IMG/VR virus record: IMGVR_UViG_2140918008_000001
Span: 3,491-67,490 of that record
Length of the DNA: 64,000 nt
Direction: 5' to 3' (one strand)
Origin: a virus
Lineage: Duplodnaviria > Caudoviricetes
Below, in pieces: positions 189-54,113 of this stretch. How positions within the stretch are numbered: the stretch's first letter is position 1; every line of letters begins with the position of its first letter. The notes under the pieces were generated by a model, which had not been told where the DNA came from, searched no databases, and saw nothing but the letters and a program-made list of their open reading frames with translations. Position numbers and translations under genes: made by a program.

Positions 189-560
189 ATGAAAAAATTT
201 AAGTACGATATATTTCTAATTTGTCCTGTTCGAGAAACTAGTGTATCTTATTTGGAAGGAATTGAAACTCAAGTATATTATCTTGAAGCACAGGGTAAGA
301 AAGTATATTGGCCCACCAGAGACACAAACCAAAACGATTCTTCTGGACTTAGAATTTGTAGAGATAATCGAGAAGCAATAAAAAATTCTAAATTTGTTTA
401 TGTGATTTGGGATGCGAAGTCTCAAGGATGTCTATTTGATTTGGGAATTGCTTTTGCTCTCAATAAGCCTATAAAAACAATTGTTGGATATATGCCTGCT
501 ATGACAAATGGAAAATCTTTTCAAAATATGATTTTTGATTGGGAGGAGAAAGATGTTTAA
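189..560 (+). CDS. nucleoside 2-deoxyribosyltransferase-like protein
   Basis: YDIFLICP start, 'DNREAIKNSKFVYVIWD..SQGCLFDLGIAFALNKPI' Rossmann-like motif; AAGGAG RBS. Confidence 0.65.
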   Translation: MKKFKYDIFLICPVRETSVSYLEGIETQVYYLEAQGKKVYWPTRDTNQNDSSGLRICRDNREAIKNSKFVYVIWDAKSQGCLFDLGIAFALNKPIKTIVGYMPAMTNGKSFQNMIFDWEEKDV

Positions 561-1036: not shown

Positions 1037-2207
1037 AGATCATCTGTCTACATCTGAATTAGTCTCAGGACTTGTTCTAACTAATCGTGTCTCTAAAGAA
1101 TCAGTTAGACCTGAGATATTCTGTAGTCCCTATGATAACCTGATTAGATTGTGGAAGGCTGGAGATTATACAGATTACAGTGATCTTATCGGAAGCATTG
1201 GTCTTATGCCGATCCAATCGGCTGTCCAGGCTGCATCTTCTGTAAACCAGGATTCACGAGTGGATTGGGTACAAGTATTAGAGAAAGCATCAATAAGATC
1301 AGACTTGGCTTTTCAATTCGATAAACACGCAAAGAAACTTAGGCGGGGGGAAGATATTGATGCTCCTAATCTAATTTCTCAACTTAATAAACTAAGTAAA
1401 GTTGAATCAAAAGTTCAAACATTGTATTCTATCAAAGAAGAAACTGTGGCATTTTTACCTACGGGGTGGAGAGCCTTTGATGAGAATTTGGTGGGACTTC
1501 CAAAAGTAGGACTAGTCGTTATCGGTGCTCCACCAAAAACAGGCAAAACTACCAGTCTAATTAAAATCTCTGTTTCATTCATTCGTAAATATCCTGATAA
1601 GAAAGCCCTATTATTTTCTTTTGAAATGCCCGCAGGGGAATACAAGAAACGTATCCACGATCTTAATTTAGTACATCCTTTGACTGAAGAAGAAGAAAAT
1701 CGTATCCTAATATGTGAAGAAATAATGTCAGTTGATGCTATGGCAAATGTAACAGCAGGATTTGCTAAAGATAATATTGGGCTGGTTGGCATTGATTTTG
1801 TCGATTTTTTAGTACAAGATGTCATGGATGAACAGAAAATGACTCATTGTTATCTTACCTGCGCAACCTTAGCTAAACAACTATCCATCCCTGTGATATT
1901 GTTGTCTCAACTCAACGGCTATTACCAGGGTGGGCTTCCGAGACCAATTCATCTTCGTTTTACTCGTATGGCAGAGGCTTTATCATGGATGGTGCTCATG
2001 CTTTATAATCCGGCCCAAGATTATTTTGAGAAAAAAGATGCCGGTTTGCCTATTACAATAGGAAAGGCATACATAATTGCTTGGTTAATTCGTGGTGGAT
2101 TTCCAAACCATTTAGAAGATTCACCAGGTGCAATACAAATTTCATGGTCAGGAAAGACTGGCTGGATGGATCGTGGTAGTTGGCGTACTTTACAAAAAGG
2201 GGAATAA
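1026..2207 (+). CDS. dnaB: DnaB-like (SF4) replicative helicase
   Basis: Walker A GAPPKTGKT, FSFEM, IDFVD (Walker B/H2), ILLSQLN (H3). Confidence 0.75.
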   Translation: MMGEDHLSTSELVSGLVLTNRVSKESVRPEIFCSPYDNLIRLWKAGDYTDYSDLIGSIGLMPIQSAVQAASSVNQDSRVDWVQVLEKASIRSDLAFQFDKHAKKLRRGEDIDAPNLISQLNKLSKVESKVQTLYSIKEETVAFLPTGWRAFDENLVGLPKVGLVVIGAPPKTGKTTSLIKISVSFIRKYPDKKALLFSFEMPAGEYKKRIHDLNLVHPLTEEEENRILICEEIMSVDAMANVTAGFAKDNIGLVGIDFVDFLVQDVMDEQKMTHCYLTCATLAKQLSIPVILLSQLNGYYQGGLPRPIHLRFTRMAEALSWMVLMLYNPAQDYFEKKDAGLPITIGKAYIIAWLIRGGFPNHLEDSPGAIQISWSGKTGWMDRGSWRTLQKGE

Positions 2208-4505: not shown

Positions 4506-4508
4506 AAG

Positions 4509-4642
4509 TGTGATATAATATGAACTGTCAAGGAGAACACGGCTTTTTATTTTCTCAACGGACAGTTGCTATCTACAAGAAGCCTGATCTCCTTGACAAG
4601 AATCGGAGAAATGTAGATAGCAACTTTCTGTATCGAGGAGAC
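4509..4642 (+). promoter_or_regulatory. extended -10 promoter plus structured HNH leader, copy 1
   Basis: TGTGATATAAT 4509-19; A 4526-36/4588-98 (11 bp), B 4541-45/4580-84, C 4564-77/4612-25 (14 bp); GAGGAG 4635-40. Confidence 0.75.
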
Positions 4643-5296
4643 ATGGGAAGATTTGTGGATTTATCCGGAAGAAAATTCGGAAAACTTTTGGTAATTAAAC
4701 GAATGGGGACAGGAAATGATGGTCATATTTTTTGGGAATGTGTTTGTGATTGTGGAAATACAAAGACTAAAGTAGTTTCAGGAACTTCTTTAGTACAAGG
4801 TAAAACAAGATCATGTGGGTGTTTATATGTAGGACATCCAACTCATCACTGTAGAAATACTGCAACATATGCTGCCTGGACAAATATCCAACAAAGATGT
4901 GAAAATCCTAATGATGCTTCGTTTAAATTTTATGGAGCAAGAGGGATAACTGTTTGTGACAGATGGAAAGAAGGTTTCCAAAACTTTCTTGACGATATGG
5001 GAATGAAGCCCGGAGGAGGAGAAATTTCCATAGAAAGAATTGACAATAGCAAAGGATACAGTCCAGAAAATTGTCGATGGGCAACTCATAAAGAACAAAT
5101 GAATAATACTAGAATGAATCATTATATAACATTTAATAATGAAACATTGACTATGATGCAATGGTCTGAAAAAACAAATATTCCTTATGACACACTACGG
5201 AATAGAATTAATTCCTATGGATGGGCAATAGAGAAAGCTTTATTTACACCAGTAAGAACAAAACTATCGAACAATAAAATATATGAAAAAGGATAA
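4643..5296 (+). CDS. free-standing HNH-type homing endonuclease
   Basis: DLSGRKFGKLLV, CVCDCG, TRSCGC, QRCENP..YGARGITVCDRW, SIERIDNSKGYSPENCRWAT; start moved to ATG 4643 after the RBS. Confidence 0.85.
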   Translation: MGRFVDLSGRKFGKLLVIKRMGTGNDGHIFWECVCDCGNTKTKVVSGTSLVQGKTRSCGCLYVGHPTHHCRNTATYAAWTNIQQRCENPNDASFKFYGARGITVCDRWKEGFQNFLDDMGMKPGGGEISIERIDNSKGYSPENCRWATHKEQMNNTRMNHYITFNNETLTMMQWSEKTNIPYDTLRNRINSYGWAIEKALFTPVRTKLSNNKIYEKG

Positions 5297-5302
5297 GATA
5301 AA

Positions 5303-5599
5303 ATGAATAAAATTATGGTACTAAAAGCACATAGTCCGGCTATACATAAACTTGGAGATATTGGACAATCAGATACAGATGAATATATCCGAGTTTGTGA
5401 AGAAACCAAAAAATTCTATATTGGACATTTTGAAGAGGGATTTGGATTTATTGGAGTTCATTTCGCTAAGACAGATGTAAGACCTCTAACTAAAGAAGAA
5501 ATTGATGATGTAAACAAATGCTGGTATGTATTAGCAGGAATACCTCGATATAAGTTATCCTTTGACTATGAAGGAAATGTTAAAGATGACATCAAATAG
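5303..5599 (+). CDS. hypothetical protein
   Basis: ORF with AAGGA RBS in operon. Confidence 0.6.
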   Translation: MNKIMVLKAHSPAIHKLGDIGQSDTDEYIRVCEETKKFYIGHFEEGFGFIGVHFAKTDVRPLTKEEIDDVNKCWYVLAGIPRYKLSFDYEGNVKDDIK

Positions 5600-7781: not shown

Positions 7782-8256
7782 AACAAGAGGATCAGTTCCA
7801 CCTGAAGGAACATCTCATCTCTATAAAGTCACAAAACTATTGTGGCCGAAAGAGATTGAGGCTTATTTGAACATGCTTCTTGTTGGGAAATCTTTGCATG
7901 TTTGTTGTGGAAAAAGTCAAATTGGGGATATTCGATTAGATTTATTTGAAAAAGATGCAGATGTTTTGGGAGATGCTAGCAGACTACCCTTTACAGATAA
8001 AAGTGTTGATACTATCTTAATTGATCCTCCTTATAATGGGAAATTTCAGTAGAATCACGATATGCTTTCTGAATTAAGCAGAGTATCAAAACAACGAATT
8101 ATTTTTCAACATTAGTTTAGTCCTGTAGACAAATTTGGATATTTTAAGAAAGATCATCAATTTGTTCTTACAGATTTGTATAATTGGATGCCCAAGAGTT
8201 ATTTTGGTAGAATGCAAATAATTAGTGTATTCGATAAAATAGGAGATACACTATGA
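7741..8256 (+). pseudogene. small DNA methyltransferase-like gene with two in-frame TAG codons (8050-52, 8113-15)
   Basis: LHVCCG, DLF..DASRLPF, DPPY; the frame continues past both TAGs to TGA 8254-56, which overlaps the next ATG (ATGA). Confidence 0.7.
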
Positions 8257-9626
8257 GTGATGATATTAATGAAATCCCTGAATCATATAGAGGACATAAA
8301 AACATGAACAATCTACAGAAACAGAATGACAAAGTAGAATTAATGTTGTCAGTAATGGAAGATTGGTTTAATTCAAAACCGATTAAACCATTCATTCCAG
8401 GTGAAACATACATCAAGGTTGCACAGATTAATCAGAACCTGGAAGATTACCTATTTATGCTTCGTGCCCTTATTGACGATCACTGGAATGAGGGAGGTAA
8501 ATGGACAGAAGAAGCACAGGAATTATTGAGTGAGATTACTAGACAAGACTATATAAGTTTTGTGAACTCAGGAAGTTCAGCCAACCTTGTAGCATTTTTA
8601 ACTTTGAATGAGAAGTTTGAAACAGATAAAATCATAACTACTGCTGTTGGATTTCCTACTACAATTACTGCACCATTACAAGCAGGGAAGGAAATTGTTT
8701 TCGTAGACACCAACCCTGAGACATTAGAACCTGATTATGACCAATTAAAAGAAGCATATTTTACAGGTTCAGAAAATCGTTATGGTGTTATCTTAGCACA
8801 TACCCTTGGTTTTCCATTTGATGAAGAGGAGGTTATTCTTCGTATTACAGAACGGGAATGTTGGTTTTTATTCGACTGTTGTGATGCTCTTGGAGCAGTA
8901 ACACATGAATATCCTGTTGGAACACAGGCTGATCTTTCAACTTATTCTTTCTATCCTGCTCATCATGTTTCTGCAATCGAGGGTGGGGCAGTCTGTAGTA
9001 GGAATAAAGAACTTACTCGTATTGTAGAATCTTATCGTAACTGGGGACGGGACTGCTATTGTTCTCCAAATGAAGATAATACCTGTGGGGCTAGATTTAA
9101 TCAAAAATGGGGACAGATGCCGAAGGGGTACGATCACAAATACATTTCAGCTAGATTAGGCTATAATTTGAAGATGACAGAGATTCAGGCGTCTTTGCTT
9201 TATAGTCAATTACAGCATGTTCAAGAAATTCAGGAAAGTCGTCTAAATCATTTCAAATATATGAAAGGTCTTTTGGCTGATCTTTCTGATTATTTCCAAT
9301 TTGTGTCGTATGATCCTGCTATCTCAACTCCTTCACCATTCGGATTTCCAATTTTGTGTCGGGAAGGAATTAGTCGTTTAAAACTAATCCGATACTTGGA
9401 AGATAAAAAAGTAGGAACGAGATTAATATTTGGTTCTGATCTTTCGAAACAACCAGCTTTCATTCCATATGTGAGATCAGGCCAAATACAATGTCCATTT
9501 CCCCTTACTGGTGCTGATAACATTACGGATAATGCCTTCTGGATAAGCTGTAATCAAAATCTTACATCTGAACAGATTACTTATATGGTTGAAATTCTAC
9601 ATCAAGCTGTAAAGGAGATAAAATAA
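8253..9626 (+). CDS. rfbH: DegT/DnrJ-family PLP/PMP enzyme, RfbH/DdhC-like (CDP-4-keto-6-deoxyglucose 3-dehydrase E1)
   Basis: VNSGSSANL, AHTLG, FDCCDALG, SFYPAHH (His at the Schiff-base Lys position), GRDCYC..DNTC, GYDHKY, GYNLKMTEIQA. Confidence 0.85.
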   Translation: MSDDINEIPESYRGHKNMNNLQKQNDKVELMLSVMEDWFNSKPIKPFIPGETYIKVAQINQNLEDYLFMLRALIDDHWNEGGKWTEEAQELLSEITRQDYISFVNSGSSANLVAFLTLNEKFETDKIITTAVGFPTTITAPLQAGKEIVFVDTNPETLEPDYDQLKEAYFTGSENRYGVILAHTLGFPFDEEEVILRITERECWFLFDCCDALGAVTHEYPVGTQADLSTYSFYPAHHVSAIEGGAVCSRNKELTRIVESYRNWGRDCYCSPNEDNTCGARFNQKWGQMPKGYDHKYISARLGYNLKMTEIQASLLYSQLQHVQEIQESRLNHFKYMKGLLADLSDYFQFVSYDPAISTPSPFGFPILCREGISRLKLIRYLEDKKVGTRLIFGSDLSKQPAFIPYVRSGQIQCPFPLTGADNITDNAFWISCNQNLTSEQITYMVEILHQAVKEIK

Positions 9627-9856: not shown

Positions 9857-10088
9857 GAACAAAACAATAATTTTTTCTGTCATAAATAAAGAAGATCATT
9901 TAGAAAATAGAGCAGTAGAATTAAGAACAAATGATCTTGCTCTAAATTCCTATGAATTGGGAATACTAGATTTCAATGAAGAAATACATATTACTCTAAC
10001 TAGAGACGAAGTGTTAGACCTTATAAAAGCCTTTGGTTCTTTTATAACACTTACAAGTTCAGTATTGAGTCGCAACCAGACATGCTAG
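9855..10088 (+). CDS. hypothetical protein
   Basis: ORF with AAGGAG RBS. Confidence 0.55.
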   Translation: MNKTIIFSVINKEDHLENRAVELRTNDLALNSYELGILDFNEEIHITLTRDEVLDLIKAFGSFITLTSSVLSRNQTC

Positions 10089-10091
10089 AAA

Positions 10092-10233
10092 TGTGGTATA
10101 ATATGGAGGTCTAGGAAATTTCGAGTGCTTTTTATTTTGTCAACGAAAGGCTGTCCATTTGTGGTAAGCACCGATTTCTTAGACAAAAATCGACAAAAAC
10201 ACAATGGACAGCCTTTTGTATTGAGGAGTGGAA
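10092..10233 (+). promoter_or_regulatory. extended -10 promoter plus structured HNH leader, copy 2
   Basis: TGTGGTATAAT 10092-102; A 10109-19/10174-84, B 10125-30/10166-71, C 10146-63/10200-16; GAGGAG 10223-28. Confidence 0.75.
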
Positions 10234-10863
10234 ATGGGAAGAAAAAATATTGATCGCACAGGTAAGAAATATAACAAACTTCTCGTTATAGAAGAAGCAG
10301 GTAAAGACACAAAAGGAAATTTTTTGTGGAAATGTCAGTGTGATTGCGGAAAAATAATTACAGTTTCGGGAAAAAACCTTAATAATGGGGACGTAAAATC
10401 TTGTGGGTGTTTACGTGATGGACATCCAAAACATGGTCTTGTGTATACTCCCACTTATGAAATATGGTGTGGCATGAAGAAACGGTGTACTAATCCAAAT
10501 TGTGTTGCATGGAAAAATTATGGTGGACGTGGAATTACCCTCTGTGAACGTTGGATGAAATTTGAAAACTTCTATGCCGATATGGGAGAACGTCCTGAAG
10601 GTCTTTCTATTGATCGCATAGATAATAATGGAAATTATGAGCCAGGAAACTGCCGGTGGGCAACCAACACTGAACAAGCAAATAATACTCGCCAAAATCA
10701 TTATCTTACTTACAAAGGGGAAACAAAAACTATCAAGCAATGGGCAAAAGAGTTCAATATGTTATATAGCACTCTATGTGGCAGAATAATAAATTATAAA
10801 TGGCCTATTGAGAAGGCATTAACAGAACCTCTTTATATAGGTGGTCAGTATCCAAAAGCCTAA
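10234..10863 (+). CDS. free-standing HNH-type homing endonuclease (paralog of 4643-5296)
   Basis: DRTGKKYNKLLV, CQCDCG, KSCGC, KRCTNP..YGGRGITLCERW, SIDRIDNNGNYEPGNCRWAT. Confidence 0.85.
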   Translation: MGRKNIDRTGKKYNKLLVIEEAGKDTKGNFLWKCQCDCGKIITVSGKNLNNGDVKSCGCLRDGHPKHGLVYTPTYEIWCGMKKRCTNPNCVAWKNYGGRGITLCERWMKFENFYADMGERPEGLSIDRIDNNGNYEPGNCRWATNTEQANNTRQNHYLTYKGETKTIKQWAKEFNMLYSTLCGRIINYKWPIEKALTEPLYIGGQYPKA

Positions 10864-11361: not shown

Positions 11362-13029
11362 TCATAAATATGCACAAACTGCTCGAATAGATAGTTTACT
11401 TTGATCGTTCAAGTTGTAAATATTATTAATTGTACCAGTATTTTGGTTTGTAAGAAGATAATATGTAGTTTTAGTAGTCAACACTAAGATTTTATTTACA
11501 AAAAATTGGCTGGTTACAGAAGAGGAGTTTTGAACATCCTCTCTATATGTGAAGTCAGTATCAGTCTCACTATTATTTGTGGTAGATAAAGTTGTTTGGA
11601 TATCAATTGCTCCGTTACCTGTTTTATTTGCATAGGCCCTTCCCTTCAATATAATATTCCACACCCCAATAGGAATTGTAATTTGGGTTGTTCCTAAATT
11701 ATAATAAACACTTATTGTTGGATTAGATTGAGAATATTGAGTAACAGATGTTACTTCAACTGTCCACTTAGAGGGGCTAAGTGGAAATCCAAAAGGAGCT
11801 TTTGCTACTGAATAATAAGGAGATGTAATTGCTCCACCTGATAATGTATAATCCGTGCCTCCATAAAGAAGAATTGCAGTGCTAGATGTATAGGACACTG
11901 ACATAACAATAAAATATTTAATTACACTACTATCAATTAATTTTATCCGCATACCAGGAGAGATAACACCAGTTTGATCCCCCGTACAAGTTACAATATA
12001 ATTTGGAGCATCTGCTGATGAATAAGTTAATGTTGGCGCAGAAACCCATCCATCTGATGCTGTTCCTGCTGGAATCGCTCCTATATCTTTTATGTGGTAT
12101 CCATCAGTGTCAAACCCTGCCATGTGACCATTTGTTACTGATGGGCTTCCATAAACATTTCCTCCGCCAGAACTTCCAGTAATTTCACTCCAATGATGTC
12201 CATCTAATTTGTCTGAATTAACTACAATTCCAGTATGTCCAGGATCATAGGTAGATCGATACATATCTCCGTAAGTACCTGTCCCTGATCCATAAGACCC
12301 TGAAATACCAATAAACGGATTACCTCTCAAATCTAATATATCTGTGTATTCATAAATTCCTGTTTGCCCCGAATAAAGTTTTACTGCTGCTACAGGAGCA
12401 TTTCCATAAGGTAAACCTGGAATGTCTGTCAATGATAAAGACATTGAGACTGATCCCGTAGTAAAATCTGTTGTCAAACCATCTGTATCAACGGATACTA
12501 ACATATACCGACTTCCCGATGTTGGAACTAATCCTAAGAGATCAGTTATCCCTGTTGGATAAAACAAATTCCATTGATTATTTGTATAAATGTAATCCGG
12601 GGAAACAACAACTAAAAATCCATACGCATTCAATCGAAATGGCATGTATTGTCTTTTTGAGATAAATACCATATCAGCCCCACCATATTCATGTTGCTGA
12701 TGATGTCCCCCCAAACTAGGAACATTACTAACATTGAGGGAGGGAAAATAACTTAGTTGTCTGATAATCTGCAACTTTACTGGATTACTTGGATAGTAGC
12801 CAATTTCAACAGGCAAATTATCTGCATTAGGAACAACTGAGTTGAAAGCAATTTTTACTCCAGATTGCCCCATAATTCTTACATAAACTTCTGTTCCATT
12901 GGTGGAATTGGGAACAAGAACCACTCCTTGACCATTTCCTAACCAACCTGTATGCATATCAGTTGGATTATTGTTATTGGCAAGTCGATTGATGCTCTTT
13001 GAAAGATTGGCTTGATTTTTTATTTCCAT
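11362..13029 (-). CDS. tail fiber / receptor-binding protein
   Basis: Last gene of the tail block; G/S/T-rich, beta-rich 555 aa. Confidence 0.6.
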   Translation of the reverse strand: MEIKNQANLSKSINRLANNNNPTDMHTGWLGNGQGVVLVPNSTNGTEVYVRIMGQSGVKIAFNSVVPNADNLPVEIGYYPSNPVKLQIIRQLSYFPSLNVSNVPSLGGHHQQHEYGGADMVFISKRQYMPFRLNAYGFLVVVSPDYIYTNNQWNLFYPTGITDLLGLVPTSGSRYMLVSVDTDGLTTDFTTGSVSMSLSLTDIPGLPYGNAPVAAVKLYSGQTGIYEYTDILDLRGNPFIGISGSYGSGTGTYGDMYRSTYDPGHTGIVVNSDKLDGHHWSEITGSSGGGNVYGSPSVTNGHMAGFDTDGYHIKDIGAIPAGTASDGWVSAPTLTYSSADAPNYIVTCTGDQTGVISPGMRIKLIDSSVIKYFIVMSVSYTSSTAILLYGGTDYTLSGGAITSPYYSVAKAPFGFPLSPSKWTVEVTSVTQYSQSNPTISVYYNLGTTQITIPIGVWNIILKGRAYANKTGNGAIDIQTTLSTTNNSETDTDFTYREDVQNSSSVTSQFFVNKILVLTTKTTYYLLTNQNTGTINNIYNLNDQSKLSIRAVCAYL

Positions 13030-26468: not shown

Positions 26469-26789
26469 TTATTTTCCCTTTGGCTTAATTACATCTAAAA
26501 CAGAAAGTAGACCTGAACGATAACCCCACTGCCAATTATCAATAGGATTGAAAATCATATTTGATTTCAAGGCATCTACAATAGCTTGTAATTGAGACTC
26601 AGCTTTCTCAGCACGATGTTGCCAATCTGCATAATTATCATGATCTTGCTCAATACGTTTTTCAAGTCCTGCAATCTTACTACGATAAATATCTCCCTCA
26701 CAACCAGTTTTGAGACATCGCATCTCAATAATAGTTCCATGAGATTCCTTTTTTATATATTCAGCATATGCTTCTTCAAGTGTAGTCAT
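26469..26789 (-). CDS. hypothetical coiled-coil protein
   Basis: ORF in operon. Confidence 0.55.
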   Translation of the reverse strand: MTTLEEAYAEYIKKESHGTIIEMRCLKTGCEGDIYRSKIAGLEKRIEQDHDNYADWQHRAEKAESQLQAIVDALKSNMIFNPIDNWQWGYRSGLLSVLDVIKPKGK

Positions 26790-27286
26790 TCTATTTTATC
26801 CTCATATTCTTTATCTCTATTGATCCACTCTTCAGGAAAATTGAGCCAAGCAAACTCCCCAAATAACTCTACGGCCCTCTTGTCGTAAACATGAGCAGCC
26901 TCTTCAGATGTTTTGAAACTTCCTAAATGCATTTCCTTAAAAAATAATTTTATTCTGGAAAACCACACATGATCTCTCATGCAATAAGTAATTCCTTTAA
27001 ATCCAGAGGTATTATTTTTAGAAAGAGGCCGATTTCGCTGATTTTCAGATTTATTACATAATCTTAAATTACTTCTGCAATTGTTAAAAGTATTTCTATC
27101 AATATGATCTACTTGTTTTCCTTCTGGAGTAGTCAAAACAAGATGATGTAAGTAAATATCTTCTCCTTTAGAAGTTCGTAAAGCATATCCGCCTTTACCA
27201 CAACGCCATTTCCACTGATTCAAATACTCAAACATATCGTCATCAACTAGAGTAACTTTTCCTTGTGTCAAAGGTATTTCTTTCAT
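26786..27286 (-). CDS. HNH endonuclease with C-terminal AP2 domain
   Basis: KEIPLTQGKVTLVDD, VDHIDRNTFNNCRSNLR, NNTSGFKG, AAHVYDKRAVELFGEFAWLNFP; ATG 27286 after AAGGA. Confidence 0.9.
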   Translation of the reverse strand: MKEIPLTQGKVTLVDDDMFEYLNQWKWRCGKGGYALRTSKGEDIYLHHLVLTTPEGKQVDHIDRNTFNNCRSNLRLCNKSENQRNRPLSKNNTSGFKGITYCMRDHVWFSRIKLFFKEMHLGSFKTSEEAAHVYDKRAVELFGEFAWLNFPEEWINRDKEYEDKIE

Positions 27287-27418
27287 TTTTCCTTTTAACA
27301 AAGACCTGCTATCTACCTTTTCCAGTTCTTGCTGATGGAACAGGGCGTATGTAGATAGCAGGTCTTTGTTGGAAAATAAAAACGCCTCACATCCCATCAG
27401 CAATCCTATTATACCACA
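27287..27418 (-). promoter_or_regulatory. extended -10 promoter plus structured HNH leader, copy 3
   Basis: TGTGGTATAAT 27418-408; A 27403-392/27340-329, B 27386-83/27347-44, C 27370-51/27316-297 (20 bp perfect). Confidence 0.75.
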
Positions 27419-27421
27419 TTT

Positions 27422-48582: not shown

Positions 48583-48754
48583 TTGACATAAACATAAAAA
48601 GGATGTATACTAAAAATGTTGAGGGTGTAGCATCCCAAGACAAGAAAGCCATACTGCATCTACCCAAACCACTATTTATCTTTGGTTTGTAGTCTCCTAT
48701 GTGGATGCAGGATGCTACAGACTACATACCAAAAATAAGGAGTGGTTTTTGTTT
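48583..48754 (+). promoter_or_regulatory. sigma70 promoter plus structured HNH leader, copy 4
   Basis: TTGACA-17-TATACT; A 48626-35/48710-19, B 48655-63/48701-09, C 48666-95/48719-48 containing RBS AAGGAG. Confidence 0.7.
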
Positions 48755-49315
48755 ATGCCCAATCACAATGCAAAACCAGAGAGAAATCAAGAAATTAGAG
48801 ATATGTGGAAAGATGGAAAAACATTAAAAACCATAGGAATAAAATTTGGGATTACAAAAAGACGAGTAAGTTTTTTAATTAAAGGAGTAGATAGAAAGAC
48901 AGCCCCCAAAACATATTCTTATTCATATGTTCGTCCAAGACACAACAAATATTATGGAATAAGGCATAGTGACACGGTAAAATTTTGGGAACATGTAAAA
49001 ATTGGAAATAAAGATGAATGTTGGGAATGGTTAGGGGGGAAATCACACGGATATGGCACAGTAATAATAAATACAGAGCATAAACAAGCCCATGATTTTG
49101 CCTATGAGTGGGTAAATGGGCCTATTCCCATAGGGTTAGAGGCATGTCATAAATGTAATAATAAAGGGTGCTGTAATCCAAATCATATCTACGCAGGAAC
49201 ACGACAACAAAATATGGATGATTTGCATGAACGGTATGTACGAGGAGAACTAGTTCGGATAGGTAAATATTACCCAAGACGACCAAAACAAGATAAAAAC
49301 ATAGCGACCCCATAA
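48755..49315 (+). CDS. HTH + HNH (HNH_3-like) endonuclease
   Basis: RNQEIRDMW..TLKTIGIKFGITKRRV HTH; ECWEW, AHDFAYE, ACHKCNNKGCCNPNHI..GTRQQN. Confidence 0.85.
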   Translation: MPNHNAKPERNQEIRDMWKDGKTLKTIGIKFGITKRRVSFLIKGVDRKTAPKTYSYSYVRPRHNKYYGIRHSDTVKFWEHVKIGNKDECWEWLGGKSHGYGTVIINTEHKQAHDFAYEWVNGPIPIGLEACHKCNNKGCCNPNHIYAGTRQQNMDDLHERYVRGELVRIGKYYPRRPKQDKNIATP

Positions 49316-50262: not shown

Positions 50263-50335
50263 GGACTTGTAGCGCAACGGATAGCGCAGTAGATTTCTAA
50301 TCTATTGGTTGATGGTTCAAATCCATCCAAGTCCA
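50263..50335 (+). tRNA. tRNA-Arg(UCU), CCA not encoded
   Basis: Acceptor GGACTTG/CAAGTCC, D arm, anticodon stem GTAGA/TCTAT with loop TT-TCT-AA, T arm GATGG-TTCAAAT-CCATC. Confidence 0.92.
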
Positions 50336-53394: not shown

Positions 53395-54024
53395 TTAATC
53401 AGGCCAGAATGTGAAGCGGAAGGTAGGAGCACCGGCGGATGGATTGTAAGTGCCTCTGGCAACATAACAAGCCCAAAGAGAGGTTTGTCCTGCGGCACAT
53501 TTGAATGGATAAAGAATTGATGGGCAAGGAGAGACTGATTTTGCAGCAGTAGCATACCAAGTTGAGAATGGAATTACGCCTCCGGCTCCAGGGAGAATGT
53601 GTGCTAAATCTGCTGAAGATAAAGCAAATGCAGCATGATCATTAGGAGGAACTACGGCAGCATCAAATATCCACAATTCTCCTGAAACGCCTACTGAAGC
53701 GGGGTCTTCTGCAATAACGGAGAAGAAACCTCCGCCTCCTGGATAATTAGCTGCTCCAGGGATAACCATTGCTACACCAGAAGCACCTACATATTGTCCA
53801 GTAGCATAAGAACCTGAAACAAGAGTTGGAGTAATATTTACCCCAACAGCGGGTTTAGATGTGCCTCCATTGCTTCCGGTTATACTAGAGTAACCAGGAG
53901 AAGGATTACCATAAGCATCAGTAGTACCAGCAATAACTACTAATGTAGCATCATTTGGATTAGCGATAACAGGGAATTGATTAACAGTCATAGGAAATTC
54001 CTTTCGAGGTATAAGCCCCCGCAT
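53395..54024 (-). CDS. hypothetical Gly/Ala/Pro-rich, possibly virion accessory protein
   Basis: 209-aa ORF, likely start at MTVNQ after AAAGGA. Confidence 0.55.
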   Translation of the reverse strand: MRGLIPRKEFPMTVNQFPVIANPNDATLVVIAGTTDAYGNPSPGYSSITGSNGGTSKPAVGVNITPTLVSGSYATGQYVGASGVAMVIPGAANYPGGGGFFSVIAEDPASVGVSGELWIFDAAVVPPNDHAAFALSSADLAHILPGAGGVIPFSTWYATAAKSVSPCPSILYPFKCAAGQTSLWACYVARGTYNPSAGAPTFRFTFWPD

Positions 54025-54036
54025 TTAGAAAATAAA

Positions 54037-54073
54037 ATAAGAGTGATTTCTGCATCACTCTTATTATAGCACA
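54037..54073 (-). promoter_or_regulatory. extended -10 promoter immediately followed by a terminator-like hairpin
   Basis: TGTGCTATAAT 54073-63; ATAAGAGTGAT/ATCACTCTTAT stem, then TTTATTTT. Confidence 0.55.
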
Positions 54074-54113
54074 ACTATTCTTGAAAAGATAGAACTAGAA
54101 CATTTGTTTTCTA

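Follow-up and report, generated by a model that had tools for sequence, protein, structure and literature searches.

The nuclease genes and their leaders

The window analysed here, a stretch of 64,000 nucleotides, covers most of a soil-derived virus record of 67.5 kb in IMG/VR and has a GC content of 37%. Three of its genes follow copies of one and the same leader (Table 1), and the proteins encoded behind these leaders are small homing-type nucleases of 166-217 amino acids without a RuvC domain. The gene behind leader copy 2, on which this analysis is centred, codes for a product matching PHROG 374 with an E value of 9e-76. A Pfam search with the same product gave no match, and the motif of its family reads DR-IDN, not DH. 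The gene behind copy 1 is a paralogue of the copy 2 gene with 51% identity, and the gene behind copy 3 is from another nuclease family, giving two families of nucleases that carry this leader. Tight co-directional operons surround copies 1 and 3, where the next gene either starts 7 nt past the stop codon of the nuclease gene or overlaps with it by an ATGA sequence. Among sequencing runs, this phage stretch was only recovered from two DNA runs of one soil sample, and no RNA run was listed.

Table 1. Positions of the leader elements of copy 2, of the associated nuclease gene and of the other two leader copies in the window.
Feature	Position	Strand	Remarks
Predicted extended -10 promoter, TGGTATAAT	10094..10102	+	Within TGTGGTATAAT (10092-10102); TGnTATAAT
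Helix A, 5' arm, GTCTAGGAAAT	10109..10119	+	Begins at the predicted transcription start, 7 nt past the -10 hexamer
Helix B, 5' arm, GTGCTT	10125..10130	+	
Loop L1, TTTATTTTGTCAACG	10131..10145	+	U-rich; nearly identical in copies 1-3
Candidate helix F	10135-41 (L1) / 10192-98 (linker)	+	3' half of L1 with 3' half of the linker; UUUUGUC/GACAAAA in copy 2
Helix C, 5' arm	10146..10163	+	Pairing continues down to 10140 via TCAACG
Helix B, 3' arm, AAGCAC	10166..10171	+	2 nt after the 5' arm of C
Hairpin E (small alternative), CGATTT/AAATCG	10172-77 / 10187-92	+	5' arm overlaps the 3' arm of A, 3' arm in the linker
Helix A, 3' arm, ATTTCTTAGAC	10174..10184	+	Sits in the apical loop of helix C
A-rich linker, AAAAATCGACAAAAA	10185..10199	+	Loop 3 of the pseudoknot; contains AATCG, also present in copy 1
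Helix C, 3' arm	10200..10224	+	Core 10200-16, then U-rich tract TTTTGTATT (10214-22)
Shine-Dalgarno sequence, spacer and start codon	10223..10236	+	GAGGAG 10223-28, ATG 10234-36; in the nested fold, these form the 3' strand of helix D
Regulated nuclease gene	10234..10863	+	209 aa, homing-type; PHROG 374 "HNH endonuclease"
Leader copy 1	4508..4645	+	Precedes the paralogous nuclease gene 4643-5296
Leader copy 3	27284..27421	-	Precedes the HNH_3-type gene 26786-27286 (minus strand)

Architecture of the copy 2 leader

All motifs which the original prediction had listed for the copy 2 leader (10092-10236) were found again at the same coordinates. The putative promoter begins 5 bases past the TAG stop codon (10086-88) of the upstream open reading frame. 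No -35 box was recognisable upstream of it, and the TGnTATAAT element is present at equal spacing in copies 1 and 3 and in an outside member of the family, L309 (see below). We infer from this sequence pattern that the site acts as a promoter. Helix A, which in copy 2 consists of 11 pairs including one G-U pair, starts 6-8 nt past the -10 hexamer and 0-2 nt from the predicted transcription start in all four members. The core of helix C in copy 2 contains 17 pairs and one bulged T and may be extended to positions 10140 and 10224, with the U-rich tract at its 3' end pairing back to TCAACGAAA. The 3' strand of C (C') ends 6 nt before the Shine-Dalgarno sequence, which starts at the seventh base after it.

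The elements follow each other in the order A5', B5', L1, C5', B3', A3', linker and C3', which represents the topology of an H-type pseudoknot without any bases shared between the helices. Helices A and B together provide about 17 pairs and helix C 17-20 pairs, and both stems are kept by compensatory changes. Loop L1 has a length of 12-16 nt and the linker of 11-15 nt, compared to about 9 nt needed for crossing 17-20 pairs according to our own A-form calculation. Judged by this model, both are long enough to span the stems, so that A/B and C could coexist in the same molecule.

Fold stability and crossing helices

The copy 2 leader folds with a z-score of -4.1, and none of 200 shuffled sequences folded as well. 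The crossing arrangement was evaluated by an unanchored scan for two uninterrupted, interleaved helices within 135 nt, one comprising 10 or more Watson-Crick pairs and the other 14 or more. When applied to both strands of the window, the scan returned exactly the three leaders and nothing else. Other phage and metagenome DNA amounting to 4.92 Mb contained only two hits, corresponding to 0.05 expected hits in the window versus the three observed; in background DNA the arrangement is about 60 times rarer. One of these two background hits (L176:11465-11548) consists of a promoter and a crossing-helix leader directly before an unassigned open reading frame of 210 amino acids. Crossing helices before HNH genes in general showed only a modest enrichment: loose thresholds gave 5 loci where about 1.6 were expected.

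Covariation and selection on the RNA

Covariation was analysed in a set of four sequences, consisting of copies 1-3 and L309. Helix A was paired in all 48 cells of the alignment, with changes on both sides at 9 of 14 positions. For helix B, all 17 cells were paired and both-side changes occurred at 3 of 6 positions. Helix C forms 19-20 canonical pairs in each copy, and in a comparison of any two copies, 8-12 of the pairs show both-side changes and 0-1 a change on a single side. The strongest covariation was contributed by copy 3 and the outside member L309. For copies 1 and 2, it had been claimed that the stem sequences differ almost completely, which turned out to be overstated: they share 8 of 10 aligned pairs in helix A and 4 of 5 in helix B. 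In helix C, 11 of 19 pairs were changed on both sides and 8 were identical.

The compensatory changes support the view that selection acts on structure in the stems, as originally proposed from the sequence. This view needs to be qualified in one respect, since unpaired blocks are also under sequence selection. These conserved unpaired blocks comprise the promoter, loop L1 (GCnTTTTTATTTTnnCAAC), a TGTAT-GAGGAG block and the start codon. The G-U pairs and the score gap between sense and antisense strands in the model searches described below show that the selected molecule is the RNA in the direction of the gene. The 125 bases before the second HNH-type nuclease gene are a real folded RNA leader.

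Two additional pairings were considered as potential targets of selection. Candidate helix F changes in step across the copies and yielded shuffle P values of 0.08-0.23 in copies 1-3 and of 1e-4 in L309; as a selected pairing, it is therefore significant in L309 only. Helix D, which connects L1 with the Shine-Dalgarno region, is unproven as a selected pairing, with shuffle P values of 0.08-0.98 in the four members, for which composition suffices. The match of the U-rich L1 to the purine-rich Shine-Dalgarno/start region is no better than composition predicts. Two look-alike leaders from other loci, which differ in composition from the true members, have a loop separating A5' from C5' that can pair with the spacer and the start codon, involving 9 Watson-Crick pairs in L176 (P = 0.008) and 11 pairs in L355 (P = 0.005).

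Search for further family members

A covariance model (R1) was built from leader copies 1-3 and first of all matched its own three copies as the only hits in the whole virus record, with 140-164 bits in the sense and 25-35 bits in the antisense direction. All three matches are located directly upstream of HNH-type genes. One member was found outside of this record at L309:1063-1217 (E = 1.4e-6), on a 19-kb contig of an unrelated uncultured phage. The L309 leader carries its own TGnTATAAT element and is placed directly before a gene with HNH_3 and AP2 domains, which is 44% identical to the copy 3 gene. In addition, three metagenomic proteins (P0003, P0006 and P0102) are 50-52% identical to the copy 3 protein, and their open reading frame calls run further upstream. 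The extra upstream peptide resembles the translated leader.

Several other searches yielded no further members. The leader was present in none of about 60 IMG/VR loci containing relatives of the copy 1 and copy 2 nucleases. Four exact patterns derived from the conserved blocks gave only chance matches in IMG/VR, as checked with a helix descriptor, and one pattern scan of a metagenome gave 17 chance hits and no match to the covariance model. No relatives of the phage were found via its DNA polymerase, and a tblastn search of GenBank phages with the open reading frame reading through leader 3 gave no match reaching into the leader. Among 80 bacterial and archaeal HNH loci, we obtained one weak model match (L366, E = 0.6) and three look-alikes by topology. 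A candidate within the window itself (53990-54074, minus strand; model E = 0.08) only shows a promoter with a hairpin and a U-run, and was therefore not accepted as a fourth copy. The leader family is real but, within the searches made, rare.

Searching the whole window against Rfam 15 at gathering score only returned a tRNA, and lowering the threshold to E values up to 10 for the region 10050-10300 only added chance matches of the microRNA type with 13-19 bits. The int-alpA RNA was detected in locus L015 as a positive control of this search. The leader is a new RNA family and represents a new variant of leader control of nuclease genes.

Predicted folds and a proposed model for gating the ribosome-binding site

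Helix D arises in the nested minimum-energy fold from pairing between L1 and the Shine-Dalgarno region, and hairpin E occupies the loop of helix C. The minimum for C and D, with or without E, was calculated at -42 to -46 kcal/mol, compared to -21 to -24 kcal/mol for A/B alone. Helix D adds about 8-12 kcal/mol to the nested fold, and the best nested fold drops A/B. According to a crude energy sum, the pseudoknot of A/B and C is at least as low in energy as the nested fold. The two folds differ in the exposure of the ribosome-binding site: in the nested ensemble, the Shine-Dalgarno sequence is unpaired with a mean probability of 0.15-0.44 (0.15 in copy 2), compared to 0.74-0.94 if A/B is closed and L1 is unavailable.

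We propose that A/B(+C) and C+D+E may be alternative states distinguished by what happens at the ribosome site. The OFF fold would have helix C running down into helix D with L1 placed on the Shine-Dalgarno sequence, and the resulting hairpin of about 30 pairs would hide the ribosome site. The 5' helix A/B would be made first and would pair into the apical loop of C. Once A/B is closed, the loop of about 35 nt containing L1 and C5' could not be helical from end to end, according to our own steric estimate. Helix C would then only form if L1 served as the return strap, which would exclude helix D and leave the Shine-Dalgarno sequence open. A/B would oppose the sequestering fold by geometry and not by competition for bases, and the balance between the two folds would keep the selfish nuclease scarce as transcription continues into the neighbouring phage genes. 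Against this model, helix D is no better supported than by composition in the four members, and hairpin E, which overlaps the 3' arm of A, and candidate helix F complicate a picture of two states.

The leader probably limits the amount of nuclease made. Regarding the way in which this may be achieved, our preferred reading, to which we assign a little less than an even chance, is that the copy 2 leader is a cis-acting 5' RNA of about 125 nt, which is co-transcribed with the nuclease gene and gates its ribosome-binding site. A more far-reaching version seems rather improbable to us, namely that the leaders represent a new kind of riboregulator, in which the helix at the 5' end of the mRNA enters the apical loop of the hairpin hiding the ribosome site and steric strain decides on its opening. 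Translation would then report on the integrity of the 5' end or on the binding of a factor, and L1 could allow the three leaders to cross-regulate in trans. This design appears to recur with unrelated sequences before phage HNH genes, as in L176, L355 and the putative copy 4 of the window.

Alternative functions of the leader

Several features of the leader are also expected from a transcription attenuator, which we regard as unlikely. In such a case, helix C together with the A-tract and the U-rich tract would constitute an intrinsic terminator with the 5' end of the transcript pairing into its loop; most transcripts would stop at about 115 nt and synthesis of the nuclease would need read-through. 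The base of C' is indeed GC-rich and followed by U-rich tracts in all members (UUUUGUAU, UUCUGUAU, UUUGUUAA and UUUUUGUA for copies 2, 1 and 3 and for L309, respectively), all of them matched by an A-rich run upstream. Moreover, the related HNH gene of locus L366 from a Bacteroidota assembly has a simple but strong terminator that includes nine U and lies immediately before the Shine-Dalgarno sequence, and premature termination in 5' untranslated regions yields short RNAs in Pseudomonas phages (PMC10914365). However, the loop of helix C is as large as 36 nt and the U-tracts are interrupted, with 5-6 U in 8 bases. In copy 2, GGACAGCC is followed by UUUUGUAUU with 6 U among the first 8 bases, and a simple terminator scan makes no call there. 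A/B and C share no bases and so do not provide a classical antiterminator, and an efficient terminator at copies 1 and 3 would starve the downstream genes of their tight co-directional runs. Because both of these copies lie inside tight operons, translational control as assumed in our preferred reading fits them better than strong termination.

Stem-loops at the 5' terminus are known to stabilise mRNA, as in the ompA leader, and RNase III sites occur between phage genes, as in the processing sites of T7. The leader might accordingly be regarded as an element for mRNA stability or processing, in which the 5'-terminal A/B helix protects from 5'-end-dependent decay and the duplex of C, with or without D, is a site for a double-strand-specific RNase such as RNase III. 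Cleavage would separate the nuclease message from that of the operon upstream and could take L1 away from the ribosome site. The position of helix A within 0-2 nt of the predicted transcription start in 4 of 4 members is consistent with protection, and C is a nearly perfect duplex of 17-20 pairs, or of about 30 pairs if D is included. Neither of the two roles requires the crossing topology, though, and a simple 5' hairpin would be enough for protection. We consider this function improbable.

A third possibility is that the terminated leader acts in trans as a small RNA, which either pairs via L1 with the start regions of the three nuclease mRNAs or binds a protein, while the nuclease gene merely rides behind it. 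This would agree with the observation that copies 1-3 have almost the same L1 and Shine-Dalgarno/start block despite their differing stems, so any leader could address any of the mRNAs, and a terminated product would have its two ends enclosed in helices. Yet the element never occurs apart from an HNH-type gene in this genome (3 of 3 model matches are directly upstream of one), and the complementarity between L1 and the start region is no better than predicted from composition. We consider this explanation very unlikely.

There is hardly any chance that the region is a coding N-terminal extension of the nuclease or a DNA element (a cruciform or an operator to which the nuclease binds): the nuclease frame stays open through copies 1 and 3, a public gene call runs through copy 3 (203 versus 166 aa) and I-TevI represses its own promoter via an operator resembling its homing site (PMC2988022), but a protein-coding reading is rejected because of an in-frame TGA within GTATTGAGG in copy 2 and an in-frame TAG just before the start codon in L309, the true starts are marked by well-spaced Shine-Dalgarno sequences and N-termini aligning with those of homologues, RNA is favoured over a DNA element by the G-U pairs and by the unequal model scores of the two strands, and a cruciform is impossible for interleaved inverted repeats.

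Comparison with known systems and significance

Homing endonucleases of phages are selfish and potentially harmful to their carrier, and to our knowledge barely anything is known about their restraint in phages outside of the T4 group. The leader described here is an RNA family uncatalogued in Rfam with unusually clear compensatory evolution, and its two crossing helices of 17-20 pairs represent a rare fold among known regulatory RNAs. If the proposed geometric gate is true, it would constitute a new mode of mRNA switching and a compact part for the synthetic control of expression. If the leader is only an attenuator or a stabiliser, it would still be a new family of Rfam grade marking mobile nuclease cassettes in uncultured soil phages.

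The closest functional parallel is found in the T4 family, where the homing endonuclease genes for I-TevI, for I-TevII and for I-TevIII as well as segB and mobE of Aeh1 are repressed by hairpins sequestering the ribosome site (PMC2988022). As in these cases, an RNA structure is located directly before a phage gene for a homing-type nuclease and its most stable nested fold is predicted to cover the Shine-Dalgarno sequence, with the same presumed purpose of keeping the selfish nuclease low while leaving the neighbouring genes undisturbed. In contrast, each T4 element is one hairpin whose late or middle promoter is placed inside of or past the 5' arm, which allows late transcripts to escape, whereas in all copies of the leader the only promoter-like site (10094-10102 in copy 2) comes before A, B, L1 and C. 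The leaders also differ by their two long crossing helices with alternative pairings and show no sequence similarity to the T4 elements. The logic of T4, which relies on late transcripts lacking the inhibitory arm, is inapplicable here because the promoter lies upstream of every helix arm.

Pseudoknotted operators with stems of 4-8 pairs are known from the leaders of T4 gene 32 and of the E. coli rpsO gene and alpha operon, which are bound by the repressors gp32, S15 and S4, respectively. These share with our leader a pseudoknot in the 5' leader beside or including the ribosome site, as well as the role in setting translation initiation that is predicted here. They differ from it by their stem lengths, since the stems of our leader contain 17-20 pairs, and by working through a known repressor protein.

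The short RNAs from premature termination in virulent Pseudomonas phages (PMC10914365) resemble the leader in combining a promoter, a short structured leader and a terminator-like helix with a phage gene. They are defined by their transcript ends, and neither a common fold nor a link to nucleases has been reported for them, whereas our leader was defined from sequence and its operon context argues against strong termination. HEARO, the omega-RNA of IscB (Rfam RF02033), is likewise a structured RNA beside a gene with an HNH domain. Our leader shows no match to Rfam, however, and its nucleases lack the RuvC domain. Because the RNA carries the ribosome site of its own gene, we regard it as a leader and not as a guide RNA.

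Finally, an int-alpA RNA (Rfam RF02996) was identified directly upstream of a relative of the copy 1/2-type nucleases in another phage at L015:1380-1448, with 42.7 bits. Int-alpA resembles the leader family in being associated with phages and in having an outer helix similar to a terminator, together with a U-run and a loop able to pair just downstream. It differs in forming a nested three-way junction of 71 nt without a pseudoknot of the 5' arm into the loop, and it gave no match to the leader at E values up to 10. Structured leaders thus seem to be a recurring companion of these nuclease genes.

Precise insertion of leader-nuclease cassettes between phage genes

Each cassette consists of a crossing-helix leader and the HNH-type nuclease gene behind it, and starts 3–5 nt past the preceding gene's stop codon. 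At their 3' ends, the copy-3 nuclease gene and the start of the next gene overlap via an ATGA motif (26786-26789, − strand), and the gene following the copy-1 nuclease begins 7 nt further 3' (5296-5303, + strand). As judged from these junctions, the cassettes have been inserted very precisely between phage genes. A gene just 5' of the copy-2 cassette codes for a DegT/DnrJ/EryC1-type sugar aminotransferase (8253-9626, + strand; Pfam E = 4e-54).

The genes behind copies 1 and 2 (4643-5296 and 10234-10863) are paralogues assigned to PHROG 374, "HNH endonucleases", and their products are regarded as putative nucleases. No Pfam model matched either paralogue or their relatives, all of which carry an invariant Arg where the HNH motif would be expected to have its first His (S-I-D-R-I-D-N). 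The copy-3 nuclease has a public gene call, protein P0001, that starts within the leader (27286-27397, − strand), resulting in 203 aa vs. the real 166 aa. Such extended ORF calls can reveal further leaders from protein data, with the proteins P0003, P0006 and P0102 as candidates.

Leaders of similar design at other sites

Further sites in the window and at other DNA loci (L numbers) are compiled in the table.

Promoter, leader and hairpin sites in the window and at other loci
Feature	Location	Strand	Context
"Copy 4" of the original prediction	window 48583-48757	+	TTGACA/TATACT promoter and leader of differing sequence
Promoter with hairpin	window 53990-54074	−	extended -10 promoter TGTGCTATAAT, immediately followed by a 9-pair hairpin and ATTTTATTTT
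L176 leader	11465-11548	+	gene behind: 11564-12196
L355 crossing-helix leader	393-489		directly 5' of HNH_3/AP2 gene
L356 crossing-helix leader	357-470		directly 5' of HNH_3/AP2 gene
L379 crossing-helix leader	335-439		directly 5' of HNH_3/AP2 gene
L318 crossing-helix leader	1057-1150		directly 5' of HNH_3/AP2 gene

The leader at L176 has the design of the studied family and is unrelated in sequence. It comprises a promoter and two helices: the 5' one has 11 pairs, and the other has 18 pairs and places its 5' arm within the loop of the 11-pair helix. The linker is only 4 nt. At the start codon, AAUUUUUAU is an exact complement of the loop sequence AUAAAAAUU (P = 0.008), and the 210-aa ORF behind the leader matched no Pfam family. 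Copy 4 likewise contains crossing helices, GTAGCATCC/GGATGCTAC and TGTAGTCT/AGACTACA, with no linker between them, and escapes the covariance model built from copies 1–3.

The four leaders preceding HNH_3/AP2 genes derive from genome assemblies and one viral contig. Two features of the studied family recur in L355, which may be a distant member: the C-arm sequence CTTATCTG and a GAATC/GATTC hairpin. At L366 (371-517, Bacteroidota assembly), which gave a weak match to the covariance model (E = 0.6), a canonical strong terminator, with a GC-rich stem of 10 pairs and a run of nine U, lies only a few bases 5' of the GGAGG and TTG start of an HNH_3/AP2 gene.

The hairpin at the second window site looks like a terminator of upstream transcripts that overlaps a promoter, because its 5' arm would fall 5' of the transcript start. 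A tRNA gene is located at 50263-50335 of the window.

Rfam RNAs near a relative of the copy-2 nuclease

In a contig of another phage, a gene related to the copy-2 nuclease is directly preceded by an Rfam match to int-alpA (RF02996; L015:1380-1448, + strand; 42.7 bits). Locus L016 contains a covarying int-alpA version, GGATAGGGTnGCTCCCGA, whose loop pairs just 3' of itself. A RAGATH-31 RNA is also present in L015 (3558-3612, − strand), 2 kb from int-alpA.
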